A model generated the notes under the pieces. The model was not told where the DNA came from. It saw nothing but the letters and a program-made list of their open reading frames with translations, and searched no databases. DNA of 63,921 nucleotides, filler included, from Rhabdomonas costata (lineage: Eukaryota), in NCBI GenBank assembly GCA_019059605.1. It is 22 parts of 22 records of this genome, joined end to end, with 100 filler letters (N's around TTAATTAATTAA, not from the genome) between each part and the next. Parts side by side here need not be neighbours in the genome. Positions count along the whole stretch, not along the records: positions 29,150 to 31,963 come from JAHMHO010002003.1; 21 more parts are not named here. One strand, written 5' to 3'. Position 1 is the stretch's first letter, and each line of letters starts with the position of its first letter. Positions 29,150 to 63,775 of this stretch are shown here, one piece after another. Made by a program: the position numbers and the translations under genes.

Positions 29150-30715
29150 AGGGGGTAGGAGTTCTCTTCGGTCATGAAGGCCGTCGGCCCGCTCCAATTG
29201 GTCGCAATCAAGGGCAAACCCATCGCCATAGCCTCAACATCTGCATACACACATGCATCTCACCCAGAAACAAAAAGGGTCAAAAAGTCACCCCTCCGTA
29301 CACTCAAATAAAGAAAAGTAGTGGCCCGAGCTGTTGGGCTCACCTAAATACCCACCTACCCATTTCACTTCAATCTGTGGTTCCGACTTGGCTTCGTTTA
29401 GAGTTTTTTTTAATTATAGCATGGGAAATGGTAGCACTTCGACTTGCCACTTTGCCTTGACATCACCTTGTCACTATTGCACGTTGCTTTGGGGGTGGGG
29501 GTCGCTCCCACTTGTATCCCTTCTTGAACAAACAATCGGTGCGTACGACACATGGACAGTTTTTTTCTGAGCAAGATCGAACTCCACCCCAAAACGGCAG
29601 CAACAATGCGTGCTTTTTTTTGGGGGGGGGCATTCATACGAGGACGACCCCAGCCTTCTCCACGAGATGGAATCACCACTGCGTTCACACTGGAGTATAA
29701 CCTGCGAGTACACCCACCCCGCCATCTTTCGGTGCATTCGGTATGACCTCCTCCATAATTCACAAAAAAAGGAAAGGAAAATGATCAAAACTCAACCTCG
29801 GAAACAAAAGAATAACGTTCCGCATCGAAGTCATGCTGTACATTTGTCCAAATGCTGTATCCAGCAATCATTTCCGGAAAAAAAAAGTAGAACGCATTTC
29901 TGCTACACACCGAAAGACTATTTTTGGGGGCATCTTCATTAAAGGCACCCGCGGGAAGCATCATCAGTAATCCAATAGGAACATCTTCTGAGAACTTAAA
30001 CAGGGCGACATTCATGACGACTCTTGAGAGTGCCCACCAAGAGGAAGAGCTCCTATTAGCAAGCTGCACCCCTTGAGAATTGGAGAGGGGCATTGGGACC
30101 TTGGCATCTCAGACTGGGGGATGTCATCGCCCAGGACCTCTATGGAAGGGACTGAGATATTCCACTGCGCGGAAGCGATGCCTGTGCGCCCACAAAAGTG
30201 CAAAGGGAAAGGGAAAAGTGTGAACTAATGAGCGAGTGGCCCACAGTTCGTGTACGTTGGTCGAGCATGGTGCAGTGTAGAGGCCGATTCTTTCATTCCA
30301 GTGGAACAATGAGCGAGAGTGAGTGAGTGTTGAGTTTCACAAGGAAAATAATCGAGCGTCGAAGTGTGTATAAAACTCATTATTATAATTTCTTTTGCAG
30401 TTTTCCGCAGATTTTTGGCGATCGTAAAAAAGAGAGTAAAAGAAAAGAAAAGAAAGTAATCCCCCGAATCCCCTCAGAGCGCAGCTCGAGAAAGGGAGAG
30501 GTTGAAATTGAGGAGTCTGAGAGAGAGAGAGGAAGAACCCAGGTGCCTTGCGGTGAAGTCCTGCACGGTGGCAGCGAAGTTCTCTTTAGAGTGGAAGTGG
30601 CTCGTCTTGATGTACAGGCACACGTGGTCCCTCCGTGCGTCAAACTCCTCCACGAAGGCCCGCAGCAACACATCCCACCCCTTGCGCGCCTCCCACTTGA
30701 ACACCGAGAGAAAGG
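29150..30715 (-). CDS. Glycosyltransferase family 4 (GT-B) protein (partial)
   Basis: Exons 30715-30539, 30181-30100, 29701-29640 and 29240-29150 splice in phase. Motifs: FLSVFKWEARKGWDVLL and PSRGEGWGRPHVEAMAMGLPLIATNWSG. Confidence 0.92.
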
Positions 30716-30870
30716 CTACCGGAACAAAAAGAGATGTGAGAAAAAACAAAAGGCAGGGTGGAAAATGGAGGGAAAAGGGTGAGTGACTGCGTGAGGGGCT
30801 TCTGCAGAATCCATATCAGCCATGACAAAGCTTCGCCGCGTGCGGAGTCGTTTAGCGAATGGGGATAGCA

Positions 30871-31503
30871 GGAGGAGCGCAGCGACGACGTAAAGGAATA
30901 GGAGGGATGAGCGCAGCGAATCCCGACAAGCATCTTCTTCTGTATTAGGAGGAGGGATGAACGTAGTGAATCCCGACGACATCAACCCTTTCTTCTGTAT
31001 CTGTGAGGGAGCGTACCGCGTAGCGGGGAGCGACCGAACAACGCATTTAGGGAGTGACGAGCGCAGCGAGTCACGACCATCTATTCTTCAACTAAAGGGG
31101 CCCCATGGCATCGACGCAAGGAGATGGCATGGGGTATCAGCATCTATCCCTACATGTATCTGTGAATGCCCGTAACCGTATGCGGTGGAGGGCATGAACC
31201 ACCACATCTAGGGAGCATGCGACCGGCAGGGAGCATGCGACCAGCAGAATATTCCACTGTCGTCGTGAACTCTCGGTCCCTCGAGTCACTCCTCTTACCC
31301 CTCACTCCACCACCATAAGGTGCCTACGTTCGGTCACCCTTAGAACACGTAGCATGAGTGCGTAGCGGTCATGCGTAGTAGTAAGTGCTCCCAAGTCGAG
31401 GAACGTAAGAATCGGAGTATACCCTACGCATAAAAGAAGGCATCATGGGTACGTAGCGATGGTCGGAAGGGCATCGCGTAGTAGTGGGTTCAGCACCGCA
31501 GGT
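30871..31503 (+). other. Array of about 10 non-canonical hairpins (GNA triloops, tandem G.A pairs, GNA/GNA zippers); putative ssDNA structural element
   Basis: Examples: g-GA-gggat-GA-gc-GCA-gc-GA-atccc-GA-c; g-GA-g-GA-gggat-GA-ac-GTA-gt-GA-atccc-GA-c-GA-c; gg-GA-gtgac-GA-gc-GCA-gc-GA-gtcac-GA-cc. Stems covary while the GA/GA opposition is kept. Confidence 0.85.
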
Positions 31504-31639
31504 AGGAATGCATAAAAGGGGTTGGAGGCCTCAGGTTACATCTAGGCATTCTTTCAACGCTGGTAGTAGTGGTTACCTTTACGCACTAACTCACCAGATG
31601 CCCTTCAACCCTCAGACCTCCAACCCCAACATCCCACCA

Positions 31640-31963
31640 CAGAAACAAGAACGCAAGAACCCAACACGTAACTCCGAAACACAAACACTGTAGAAGCACT
31701 GGTAACACGAAGACACAAAGACGTAAACCCGTAGAACCTGAAGACGTAAAAACACGAACCCTGAAATCCACACACGTAACCCCTAAAAACACACTCTGAG
31801 ACAGAAGCACAATACAAGCACTGGTAACACAAACACACCAACCTTGACACCATGAGGACGTAAAACACGAAGACGTAAAACCATGGCCCCAAGAACCCAA
31901 CGTGACACCAACACCCTCTGAGACACAAGCACTAACACAAGGCAGTAACACACAGACACAAAA
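31640..31963 (+). repeat. A/C-skewed degenerate tandem repeat (~122-bp period, ~8-mer subunits)
   Basis: AAGCACTGGTAACAC at 31694 and 31816. CTCTGAGACA at 31794 and 31916. Recurrent ACACGAAG/ACGTAAAA-type units. Confidence 0.8.
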
Positions 31964-56687: not shown

Positions 56688-57899
56688 TCAGACATGCAGT
56701 GCACTCAAATGGGGGAACAAAGAGGAACCCCCTAACGCCAGAACACTCGCAGCTCCGATGTGGTTTCCTGTCATGCAGAGGGATTTGAGGTTCGAGAAAT
56801 GATGAGACACAGCCAAGGCTTTCATTCCTGAGTCCCCAATGAGGTTTCTGCACACATTCAAGGAAGTAAGGTTAGTAAAGAAAGACGAAGCCGCAAGCGC
56901 CTGGCATCCCGTATCCTTGATCATGTTGTCGCTCACATTTAAGGCGGTGAGCTTTGGGTAAAGGGAAGAACCCGCCAAGGCTGTCATACCAGCATCCCCA
57001 ATCAGGTTTCGGCAACAATTCAACGATGTAAGGTTGTGGAAGAAAGATGAGGCCATGAGCGCTTGAATTCCTGCGTTTCTGATTTGGTTGTCATTTAGCT
57101 TAAGAGCAGAGAGGTTGGGGAAGAAGGGGGAGGCCGCGAGCAATTCCACTTCCGCATCTCCAATCCGGTTGTCACTAAAATCCAAAGACGACAGATTGCG
57201 GAAGGAAGAGCACGCCGCAAATGATCCCATTCCTGCATCCTTAATCCTATTCCCGCTCACACTCAAGGAAGTTAGGTTGGAAAAGAAAGTGGAAGCCCCA
57301 AGCGCTTGCATCCCAGGATTCCTGATCTGGTTGAAGCCCACGTCCAAGGATGTGAGGTTGGGGAAAAAAGAGGATGCGGTAATCGCTTGCATTCCCGCAT
57401 CTCTGATCTCATTGCCTCTGATGTCCAAAAGTTTGAGGTTGCGGAAGAAAGAGGAGGCCGCAAACGCCGCTACTCCTGCCTTCCAAATCTGGTTATAGCT
57501 CACATTCAAGGACGTGAGGTGGGGAAAGGAAGCCGAAGCCGCAAGAGCCTGCAACCCCGGGTTCCCGATTCGGTTCATACCCACGTCCAAGGACGTGAGG
57601 CTGGGGAATGAGAAGGCCACAAACGCGCGCATCCCAGCATCCCCGATCTGACAGCCTCTGACAAACAAAGTGGTCAGGTTGGGGAAAAGAGATGAAGCCG
57701 CAAGCGCTCCTGCGTCGCCCAGGATGACTGGTGGAAGCCGAAGAACGATCTTCCACTTCGGTGCGAGGGCGTTTTCCACCAAACTCCGGAATCTCCGGCA
57801 CACCACTCGCAGGCCCAGCTGCTGCTTTAGCTCCAGGAAGTAAAAGCTATGGACCAAGGTGTCCTCAGGCAGTGTGCACACCATCCACGTCGACTTCAT
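56688..57899 (-). CDS. Intronless F-box + LRR protein (403 aa, ~28-aa repeats)
   Basis: N-terminal LPEDTLVHSFYFL...LRVVCRRFR F-box, then about 12 repeats of the type LAASSFFxNLTSLxVxxNxIGDAGxxAL. Confidence 0.9.
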   Translation of the reverse strand: MKSTWMVCTLPEDTLVHSFYFLELKQQLGLRVVCRRFRSLVENALAPKWKIVLRLPPVILGDAGALAASSLFPNLTTLFVRGCQIGDAGMRAFVAFSFPSLTSLDVGMNRIGNPGLQALAASASFPHLTSLNVSYNQIWKAGVAAFAASSFFRNLKLLDIRGNEIRDAGMQAITASSFFPNLTSLDVGFNQIRNPGMQALGASTFFSNLTSLSVSGNRIKDAGMGSFAACSSFRNLSSLDFSDNRIGDAEVELLAASPFFPNLSALKLNDNQIRNAGIQALMASSFFHNLTSLNCCRNLIGDAGMTALAGSSLYPKLTALNVSDNMIKDTGCQALAASSFFTNLTSLNVCRNLIGDSGMKALAVSHHFSNLKSLCMTGNHIGAASVLALGGSSLFPHLSALHV

Positions 57900-61219: not shown

Positions 61220-63775
61220 TCATGAGAGGTCAAAGGATCGGGCTCCCTCCCAGATCGCCGTCCGCAGCTTCTGAAGCATCAGCTCCTTGGTGCTGTACGC
61301 GGGCAGCTTCAGGTAGTGGAAGCACGTGTTGCAGGAGGGAAGCAGGGTCTCGTCCAGCGGTGCAGCCGCTGGCCCGACAGAAACGGGGGCCGCAGCGGAC
61401 GAGGATGCGCTGCTGCCGCTGGTGACGGCACTGTTGGGATCCGTGGCAGAGTCGTCCAAAGGGCTTTGTGTGGCAGGCGGGGTGCCCGATAGAGGAGCGA
61501 TGGTGGGCATGCTGTCCACCCGAAGCACAGAGGAAGCATTCTCCGCAGCTCCCTGCACCCCACACACGCAGCACAATTAACAGATGAAAGCTGCGAAAGG
61601 GACACAACGCAATCGTTTTGGTTTCGATTCAGAGCCTAATCCGATGCATTGACAAAATGCTCAGCTGCGTGGTACAACTGATGAATCGAGGGGCAAGATC
61701 TGCCTTGGCTTTTGGAGTTTAACTGTGTGCGCGTGTGTGTGTGCGCGTACAGAAATCCAGCGGTCCTTATAAACCCCTTCAAAACGTGTCAAGTTTTCAG
61801 CAACACAAGAAGTTACGAAACAGGAACCCGAAATCCGTCAGAGGGACCAAAAAGTTAAATACCTCAAATAGTAACGCGCGTCCAGAAAAGGAAAGGCTTT
61901 TCTCGAGATACGTGAAGTGCTTTGCAGGGAATGGTTAGAGCTATCCAGGTCAACTCCAGCAGGAATGTTGGCAGAGACTGGCAGTAGCTCTTCGCAACGC
62001 CGGCGCCAAACAGCTGTCGGGTGCTTACTCCCCGCTGGGGGGATGGGCCCCTCCTTTCCCTGGAGATGAGCCAGCAGGCTCACCAGATCCTCCCAGCCAA
62101 TAAACGCCCCCCCCTCCCCGTGGTAGGTTAGGATTACAGTGGGTTGACTTTCGCGCGCCTTTCTTCGTCTCGCATCACCCCACTGTCATGCTCTCATCTA
62201 CACGTCTGTGCGATTTATGCGCACGTCCCCATCCCCGTCGTATAGGTCTCTTCCCTTTCAGCAGCCCACGTTTATTTTGTAACTCTGTGAGTTTAAGCGG
62301 AAATAGAAACCCTTTTGCGGGTTCCCCACCTTGCTTGTTTTCATTAACCAAGCTACCGGTGATTAAGAGCCAGGGGTGCGACGACCCAAAGCGAGCTCTC
62401 AAAAAAGAGAAGAAAGCCCACCTATAGAAGAAAGCCCACTCAAGGGTGTTGCACACTTCTCCCAAGGTGGACATGGTATGTGCCGGGGGTGGGGCACAGT
62501 GCTGGATTGCCATAGCCGAAAGTTGTCACGCCAACCCTGTCCCAAGACAACCCTATACCGCTTGTCAACCAATCCTGTCTCAAGAACTCCCGCTGATTCC
62601 TCAAAAAGCTGCTGTCTGCCTTCAGGTGAGGTGTTAGCAGCACCGCCACAACGACCACCACCACTGCCGCCGCCACTGCCACCACCACGCAACCAAACAT
62701 ACCTTGCGCACGACGGTGATCTTGGGGTTCAGCGCGGCGATGCCCCCGATGGGGAGGCAGGGTGAGCCCGTCAGCCACTCCAGAAACCCCCTCTGCTCGG
62801 CCGGGGTCAGCCCCGATCCCAGGACCTCGACCAAGAGCTGGGCCTGGGGGGACTCTGGGGTGTAACCGTGAGCCCAGCACAGCGCGGAGCGCACCTCGGC
62901 GGGGCCCCACAGAGGGATAGTGGGGTCGACCCCTCCGGCCTGCCCGCAGATCAGCCGCGGAAGCTCATCCACGGAGAAGCCCGGGAGCAGGGACCCGGGG
63001 AGGACCTGCGGAGTGAGTGGTGGACGGTACGGTATGGTAGCGTAGGGTAGGGTAGGGCAGGGTAGGGAATGGAATGGAACGGGATGAGATGGGATTGGAA
63101 GGAATGGGGCGAAAAAGCGAAACATGGTAAGAAATGAAATAAAAAATGACAATACAGCTAAAGAAGGTTTGAAATCAATGAGCCAGAGCCTGAATCAAAG
63201 CACAATTGGGAATAACCCCATGCACTCGGAGACAGCAAATTCAATTCGAGCAACAGCAACATCGATCCACTGGAGAAAAACCACTTACCCTCACCCCCTC
63301 GTTCCTAACGTTTCTTGGTGGATAGTTTTTACAAGAAGAAATGAATTATTCCTTAAGCAATCCAGTACGGTGAACGGCGCTTTTTTTTGACCGACCGGAG
63401 CACACAGGGAGTAACCTCAGTGAGGCCCTCGGCGATGGCCTCCACGGGCACCTTCACGCAATGCCACAGCAGCGCCTCGCAAACAATGCCGACGTACTGT
63501 GCAGCGTTCTCCGGGGTGACCTCCAGGGGCGAGGCTTCACCATCGCCTTCTCCGCTGCCTGGGGCTCCAGCCCGCGCGTCACCCCTTAAAAAGACGTGTG
63601 AAAATGAAGGTAACCATTTAAAAGTCTACAGATAAGATACAAGATACACTCCCTAGAAGAGCAGTTGTCACGAGTACACCGAGTACTGCGAACCCCCCTG
63701 GCCTTCCGTTGGTGGCGTCACATCATCATCCGGCATCACGGTGGTGGCAAGTTCTCCCAAACAAACGCTTTTGCT
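61220..63775 (-). CDS. HECT E3 ubiquitin ligase C-terminus (UPL3/TRIP12/UFD4-like)
   Basis: Exons ~63775-63680, 63584-63416, 63005-62703 and 61552-61220. Motifs: HGYTPESP, FLEWLTGSPCLPIGG..ALNPKITVVRK, LPSCNTCFHYLKLPAYS, EG..SFDLS*. Confidence 0.95.

Follow-up and report, generated by a model that had tools for sequence, protein, structure and literature searches.

An array of G.A-braced hairpins resembling bacterial REP elements in an intron of the euglenid Rhabdomonas costata

A co-oriented hairpin array within an intron

We analysed a stretch of 63,921 nucleotides (the 64-kb window, below simply the window) from the genome assembly of the euglenid Rhabdomonas costata (GCA_019059605.1) and describe here a hairpin array at positions 30866-31503 of its + strand. 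The array comprises eight hairpins of one kind (type 1, U1 to U8), two of a second kind (type 2) and one mini-hairpin of 9 nt, all in the same orientation. The window is a composite of 22 contigs, each about 2.8 kb long and arranged from the largest to the smallest, with linkers of the form N44-TTAATTAATTAA-N44 between them (42 N runs of 44), and features on different contigs of the window are not genomic neighbours; the array lies on the contig at 29150-31963. A preliminary description of this DNA had listed 11 hairpins and placed them upstream of a glycosyltransferase exon. In a base-by-base layout, all 11 are present where they had been placed. The adjoining exon, which belongs to a GT1 glycosyltransferase gene (30539-30716, - strand), is also confirmed, but the array itself falls within an intron of this gene, which measures at least 1247 nt, and the strand that carries the G.A hairpins (+) is antisense to it.

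The units are stem-loops, imperfect palindromes of 19-39 nt. Type-1 hairpins (30871-31242) start 30-61 nt apart and the two type-2 units are 103 nt apart. U1 (30871-30889) reads G-GA-G-GA-GC-GCA-GC-GA-C-GA-C, with four Watson-Crick pairs and five G.A oppositions, and has a TAG 2 nt upstream (30866-30868). U2 (30901-30927, TAG at 30899-30901) has eight Watson-Crick pairs, five G.A oppositions and a GCA triloop, and U3 (30948-30980, TAG at 30946-30948) has nine, seven and a GTA triloop, respectively; the inner G-C pair of U2 is replaced by A-T in U3, a compensated change. U4 (31002-31040) is composite: its outer stem includes two GA/GA steps and is joined through a GTA/GGA junction to an inner hairpin, CCGC-GTA-GCGG. 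U5 (31050-31078, TAG at 31047-31049) is similar to U2 and has the stem GTGAC/GTCAC, in which two pairs are compensated. U6 (31101-31134, inverted repeat I6) has 12 Watson-Crick pairs, three G.A oppositions, one G.G opposition and a GCAA tetraloop. U7 (31162-31199, direct-repeat family D10) is a paralogue of U4 with ATGCCC/GGGCAT as its outer stem, and U8 (31211-31242, TAG at 31209-31211, family D11) consists of two tandem copies of an 18-nt sequence that is in itself a GA-mismatched palindrome (GG-GA-GCATGC-GA-CC). The first type-2 unit (31347-31379) has the stem GCATG/CATGC and an inner GCGTAGC mini-hairpin, and the second (31450-31483) has the stem GCGATG/CATCGC. Both carry GTA opposite GTA at the foot, with GTAG at each of their feet (31349 and 31375 in the first, 31453 and 31478 in the second). 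The array ends with the mini-hairpin ACC-GCA-GGT (31495-31503). Five of the eight type-1 units have ATAG, TTAG or CTAG at or beside the foot, and the first base of this tag is never G.

Each hairpin was laid out as a symmetric fold-back for counting the oppositions. The 11 hairpins include 100 Watson-Crick, 49 G.A and 5 G.T oppositions and 6 others, and eight hairpins have no opposition beyond the first three kinds. Thus, 49 of the 60 non-Watson-Crick oppositions are G.A. These are nearly all tandem (5'-GA-3' opposite 5'-GA-3'); the remaining ones close a GNA triloop or sit in GTA/GGA or GTA/GTA triplets.

Excess over chance and repeat organisation

A strict scan for G.A hairpins (at least nine stem positions, at least four Watson-Crick pairs and at least four G.A oppositions, no other mismatch) detected five hairpins in 30871-31242, all on the + strand. 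Elsewhere, nine were detected on the remaining + strand, mostly in purine runs, and six on the whole - strand, none of them in the array. Composition-matched shuffling, the check proposed with the preliminary description, leaves the excess standing: none of 2000 dinucleotide-preserving shuffles of 30860-31260 reached five (mean 0.11, maximum 2). When eight mismatch classes were tested, only G.A on the + strand (equivalent to T.C on the - strand) yielded any match. The heptamer GCGNAGC occurs five times in 651 nt (GCGCAGC three times and GCGTAGC twice, at 30877, 30911, 31018, 31061 and 31360), whereas 0.26 occurrences are expected from the rest of the window. GTAG is found 14 times in 900 nt, compared with 2.0 per kb in the window, and CTAC three times. 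The units are paralogues (direct-repeat families D4, D7, D10, D11, D13 and D15), and therefore these excess counts gauge conservation as much as independent recurrence.

The direct repeats are spaced by 50 and 100 nt (D4), 159 nt (D10) and 161 nt (D13), and the last two spacings define a higher-order repeat of about 160 nt, in which U4-U5-U6 is followed by U7-U8. The array is thus made of head-to-tail units in the size range of minisatellites (about 10-100 nt). Tandem Repeats Finder reported a single repeat in the array (18 nt, 2.1 copies, 31210-31247). That such an array would escape ordinary repeat finders, as had been expected, largely holds: most of it was missed, but inverted arms were reported for about three of the 11 hairpins (I6, I13 and I16). 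Terminal inverted repeats like those of miniature inverted-repeat transposable elements were not found, the best arms around the array (I1, 32 nt at 72%) being too weak.

Compensatory changes around invariant G.A positions

For a covariation test, U2, U3 and U5 were aligned without gaps on a named structure. All 24 cells of the eight Watson-Crick pairs are paired, three pairs change on both sides (G-C to T-A, T-A to C-G and G-C to A-T) and no stem change is one-sided, while the five G.A oppositions stay G.A in 15 of 15 cells. In this three-sequence test, 18 of 500 shuffles were equally good. A second comparison involves U4 and U7, which agree in 5' flank, 3' foot and GTA/GGA junction but have different outer stems and different inner hairpins, each of them fully complementary. 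The compensatory changes, the invariant G.A positions and the stems swapped between U4 and U7 support the earlier proposal that structure, not sequence, is under selection. The array provides a clear case in nature of stems that evolve by compensation around non-Watson-Crick pairs, and one that escapes both standard repeat finders and DNA folding parameters.

Strand preference and DNA-type motifs

The + strand was claimed to fold better than the - strand, and energy models agree. Folded singly, the hairpins are more stable on the + strand in 10 of 10 cases with RNA parameters (sums of -133.9 and -87.4 kcal/mol for the two strands) and in 9 of 10 cases with DNA parameters (-61.9 and -44.5 kcal/mol). 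As RNA, 9 of the 10 single hairpins have z scores of -2.25 or lower, and the 401-nt region 30860-31260 reaches a z score of -4.05 on the + strand (0 of 100 shuffles as good), compared with +0.56 on the - strand.

The motifs themselves are of the DNA type, as had been proposed. According to passages of a 2026 review (PMC13037366), d(GCGNAGC) mini-hairpins melt at 70-76 C, GNA being the sole triloop to do so, whereas one reported RNA counterpart, r(GCGAAAGC), melts at 39 C. The same passages describe this stability as unexplained by conventional thermodynamic models, and the standard DNA parameters used here give no credit to the GCGNAGC motif. The review places d(GCGNAGC) at single-strand origins or promoters of phage G4, of RSF1010 (ssiA) and of phage N4. 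The array is comparable in its five exact heptamers, its sheared G.A closing pair and its strand-specific stability in the energy models. It differs in its setting: the known cases are single functional hairpins in phage and plasmid origins, and the present one is an array in a eukaryotic intron.

Core identity with bacterial REP elements

The 21-nt core of U2 (30904-30924) is identical to the core of a high-copy family of bacterial repetitive extragenic palindromic (REP) elements. Metagenomes were scanned with the 21-nt core common to U2 and U3, in which three positions are two-fold, and this pattern was detected in at least 120 contigs. Flank statistics were drawn from the 128 matches with full flanks among the matches listed. 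The stem is extended by at least three outer Watson-Crick pairs in 99 of these 128, and the variable inner pair is complementary in 125 (G.T in two and A.C in one). GTAG is found within 12 nt upstream in 36, other 5' tetranucleotides being CAAG, AACG, AAAG and CACG, and the loci are G+C-rich (median 0.63). Euglenid and bacterial copies agree in the polarity of the 21-mer core, of the 5' TAG and of the 3' GAC tail. Bacterial tandem arrays also exist, with periods of 51 nt (L113), 59 nt (L096) and 38 nt (L039). The 51-nt array (L113 at 152-300, L048 at about 115) appears by eye to be in frame within a coding region, whose flank reads like what we take to be an Hsp90/HtpG motif. Two matches to the U3 core (L062 at 3390 and L085 at 10995, - strand) lie in an apparent membrane-protein coding motif, GMNVVNP by eye, and were set aside as chance matches and not REPs.

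In a collection of one genome per species, a 15-mer of the core was matched 133 times. Thirty of these matches form hairpins, with varied stems, in records of Planctomycetota, Alpha- and Gammaproteobacteria, Bacteroidota, Myxococcota, Omnitrophota and Acidobacteriota; overall, the bacterial repertoire includes 27 different stems. A 19-nt core was also observed across at least six phyla (L154, L179, L191, L192, L183 and L237), with differing outer stems and 5' tags. The 19-mer is present in 207 copies in one bacterial genome (G001) and in 100 copies, 50 per strand, in a second, unrelated one (G002), often as inverted pairs; the reversed control gave 0. Y1 transposase matches were detected in all four REP-bearing genomes tested. 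At one locus (L279), two inverted hairpin pairs flank an open reading frame (ORF) that scores 178.6 bits on NF047646, the family of the REP-associated tyrosine transposase (RAYT; cut-off 80). The preliminary description had linked the array to elements that work as single-stranded DNA, and this link is upheld by the same hairpin design and the identical 21-mer in bacterial REPs that flank a RAYT, a transposase of the HUH type. Judged by sequence, the closest relatives of the array are single-stranded-DNA elements.

Parts of the REP literature (PMC3733652) describe families (GTAG-3 and GTAG-14) in which non-complementary dinucleotides separate the stem from a GC-bounded loop. They also describe that RAYT cleaves REP DNA at GTAG when it is single-stranded, and that this cleavage is lost if the mismatched edge is altered so that it pairs. 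In the euglenid units, the order is the same as in these GTAG-tagged REPs: foot tag, stem, GA/GA step, GC-GNA-GC, GA/GA step and stem. The GA/GA steps stand around GC-GNA-GC in U1, U2 and U5, and around AC-GTA-GT in U3. The likeness extends to the polarity of the tag and of the G.A strand, to the presence of compensated stem variants in both, and to unit length, REPs being imperfect palindromes of 20-40 nt that form a stem-loop.

We built a covariance model (R1) from U2, U3 and U5. Beyond its training units, R1 detects U1 (E 0.0023) and, weakly, U4 (E 0.057) and U8 (E 0.29). On the bacterial loci it gave 31 matches at E<=0.01 in 75 of 287 loci, to REPs with other stems, which is not independent evidence because 65 of the 75 loci had been retrieved with a 15-mer that lies inside the model.

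Other known systems and searches

Helitrons and Replitrons are eukaryotic HUH (Rep) transposons that move via single-stranded DNA and have hairpins or palindromes at their ends, as described in parts of PMC10288648; euglenids go unmentioned in the text of this Replitron paper. These elements differ from the array, as they have one terminal hairpin and no G.A-braced arrays, and encode Rep proteins. Neither a long ORF nor any ORF with a match was detected in 30717-31963, where the contig end at 31963 would hide most of any element. The preliminary description had spoken of an element inserted at this site, for which the window provides no element ends, no empty site, no second copy and no element protein.

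A viral origin, also suggested there, was rejected as unsupported, since viral scans with the array sequences gave chance-level matches only. The 17-mers of U2 and U5 matched 15 and 21 viral contigs, respectively, most without stem extension and a few in phage hairpins with other stems, the U8 18-mer had one match, which looks coding, and the U4 21-mer and U2 27-mer had no viral match. Separately, two phage-like contigs (L133 at about 1058 and L130 at about 5735, both on the - strand) have a GA-GCGCAGC-GA hairpin next to a second one, with a 7-8-bp stem and a triloop of GTA or GCA, and these stems differ between the contigs yet remain complementary.

Several known structures were compared by eye with their consensus motifs and dropped: the kink-turn or C/D small nucleolar RNA, a hammerhead core (GA-stem-GA beside UGA and GAA), and the nonanucleotide of circular Rep-encoding single-stranded (CRESS) DNA viruses (TAGTAGTAA after the type-2 hairpins). 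The stems pair straight through, and there is no match to an Rfam family. The core 17-mer or its complement was not found printed in the literature, and the excerpts found of the Euglena literature on hairpins, tandem repeats and introns describe no nuclear hairpin arrays.

A REP-like family as the favoured reading

We tentatively favour, with a confidence that falls just short of even, the reading that the array is a REP-like element family that owes its expansion to tandem duplication and has been under selection in the form of folded single-stranded DNA. Its design is one of short Watson-Crick segments split by tandem G.A/A.G steps or GNA/GNA junctions, with hairpins closed by d(GCGNAGC)-type GNA triloops and most units preceded by TAG. 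Selection would act on the + strand of the DNA as a folded single strand, a state in which it would be exposed during replication, for example. A protein with specificity for hairpins in single-stranded DNA would act on the family, or would once have done so; the most likely candidate is a RAYT-like nuclease of the HUH/Y1 type encoded elsewhere. Local tandem duplication at two scales, that of the roughly 50-nt units and that of the roughly 160-nt higher-order repeat, would have multiplied the units, and the copies that kept the fold would have persisted.

Several observations weigh against this reading. The evidence comes from one locus within the window: the remaining ~61 kb has no other copy of 30720-31963, R1 has no match at E<0.01 outside the array, and a search of the window for a RAYT-like protein found none (best tblastn E 1.4). 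Under standard DNA parameters, shuffles fold as well as the 401-nt region on either strand (z of -0.01 on + and -0.08 on -), and therefore the region is nothing special to the standard DNA model. A raw energy difference between the strands is common in the window (standard deviation of 10.4 kcal/mol across 287 sub-windows of 200 nt), and the eight of these that favour the + strand most do not include the array. There are also differences in design. The euglenid type-1 tag is NTAG, with A, T or C first, not GTAG, and the degenerate tags published for REPs in the parts of PMC3733652 cited above (GYAG, GYRG, GTRG and GTMG) keep the first G. All euglenid units are co-oriented, whereas REP doublets (REPINs) and bacterial interspersed mosaic elements (BIMEs) have inverted pairs, and BIMEs consist of regularly spaced REPs in alternating orientation; the array has five strict G.A hairpins on the + strand and none on the - strand. 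The outer stems of the euglenid units include GA/GA steps, whereas those of the bacterial copies are G+C-rich pairs. The identity with the REP core may be a convergence. Coding conservation can give a 21-mer a chance match, as seen for the U3 core in two coding-looking contigs, and 10 of the 30 bacterial hairpins have the same GGG/CCC stem in a sample that fixes only the last two stem pairs. Finally, only one of ten Y1-transposase loci retrieved from the four REP-bearing genomes is flanked by the hairpin, and one more has a single nearby copy.

A stronger version, which we consider rather doubtful, is that a REP/RAYT-type system is at work in the nuclear genome of a euglenid, and that an HUH Y1 nuclease would there recognise the hairpins and move them as single-stranded DNA. 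Such a nuclease may have been acquired from bacteria or may be shared with giant viruses. In the literature found, as far as the cited parts of PMC3733652 go, REP/RAYT-type systems are described only for prokaryotes, while the present array lies in a nuclear intron of a spliced euglenid gene. If this version were true, domains of life would share a code for recognising single-stranded DNA, namely the G.A-braced design of the hairpins. An array of REP design with a REP-identical core in a spliced nuclear euglenid gene, where eukaryotic HUH transposons look different (as covered in parts of PMC10288648), leaves two possibilities, either a spread of REPs across domains or a strong convergence on one set of DNA motifs. 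In the case of convergence, tandem sheared G.A pairs and GNA mini-hairpins would arise wherever single-stranded DNA structure is selected.

Convergence is also the core of one of the alternatives, a self-expanding minisatellite without a dedicated enzyme, whose likeness to REPs would reflect convergence on stable DNA motifs. Here, G.A-braced hairpins on one strand would promote replication slippage and unequal exchange and thereby multiply the units locally. The tandem, co-oriented organisation at scales of about 50 nt (units) and about 160 nt (higher-order repeat), the duplicated GA-mismatched palindrome of U8, the single copy in the window, the broad bacterial repertoire of 27 stems and the host intron, which is more than three times as long as its three neighbours and filled with other degenerate repeats, are all in line with it. 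Slippage alone fails, however, to explain the conserved TAG foot, the conserved GTA/GGA junction and the compensation of three out of three stem changes, and random stems would be unlikely to agree with the commonest bacterial core at 21 of 21 positions (1 in 1024 for five pairs). We regard this explanation as unlikely, and give about the same weight to a structured RNA, in which the + strand would be transcribed antisense to the intron, for example as protein-binding modules or small-RNA precursors. Under RNA parameters the 30860-31260 fold stands out on the + strand alone, as do nine of the ten single hairpins, the five G.T oppositions would become G.U pairs, one loop (GCAA) is of the GNRA type, and the authors of PMC3733652 suggest, in the parts cited, that bacterial REPs also act as RNA. 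On the other hand, most terminal loops are GNA triloops, the signature of the DNA mini-hairpin, which is far less stable as RNA. Rfam gave no match at the gathering score in the window and none even at E<=10 in 30700-31963, and the + strand ORF at 30894-31172 shares no words with any entry in a collection of 5.8 billion predicted proteins, which includes transcript-derived euglenid proteins.

The core 21-mer, the 5' TAG and the 3' GAC tail would fit the relic of a horizontally acquired bacterial REP array, whose composition has since drifted and which has no present function, and bacterial tandem arrays of similar period (38-59 nt) are known from the scans above. We find this quite improbable, given that spacers and flanks lack bacterial character (G+C of about 0.50-0.51 in the array region, as opposed to the bacterial-locus median of 0.63), that nothing is common to the two beyond the hairpin core, and that neutral decay would not yield compensated stems with invariant G.A positions. 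Least credible of all is an effect of chance or composition, or an artefact of assembly, for example contamination with bacterial DNA or a chimeric contig. Purines are enriched on the strand (GC skew 0.166 and AT skew 0.186 in 30001-31000) and the assembly behind the window is one of short contigs, but no composition-matched shuffle reached the observed hairpin count, the spacers are not bacterial-like, and the same contig bears four exons identical to a euglenid transcript product.

The host gene and other repeats

The exon adjoining the array encodes residues ~267-326 of the matching protein (P0001) and has 100% identity to the EukProt protein RCo034818, a GT1 glycosyltransferase. The RCo prefix denotes R. 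costata transcripts in the parts of PMC8219788 cited. Further exons were located by tblastn on the - strand at about 30180-30099, 29703-29635 and 29238-29149. The four exons are separated by introns of the spliceosomal type and are 100% identical to the R. costata transcript product over the parts that the prediction covers; residues (codons) 1-266 of the matching protein lie outside the contig. By the tblastn exon placement, the segment 30717-31963 (- strand), which runs to the contig end at 31963, is part of an intron. The three neighbour introns are ~360-400 nt each.

Directly 3' of the array lies a larger imperfect hairpin (I2, 31518-31627, + strand), with 18-nt arms that are 89% complementary and 74 nt apart. 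It is followed by an A/C-rich degenerate repeat of about 122 nt (31630-31963, + strand, direct-repeat families D1 to D6 and D8) that reaches the contig end. This segment includes 6 of the 10 ACGTAA in the window and is studded with GTAR, with nine GTAA and no TTAC. The bias towards GTAR on the + strand is common to the hairpin array and this A/C-rich repeat.

Other contigs of the window also have tandem repeats. One, at 57264-57608, is an 81-nt repeat in 4.3 copies with 66% matches. At 63026-63107, (GGTAG)n adjoins (GGAAT)n, with about eight copies of each, and this tract is likewise G/A-rich on the + strand.

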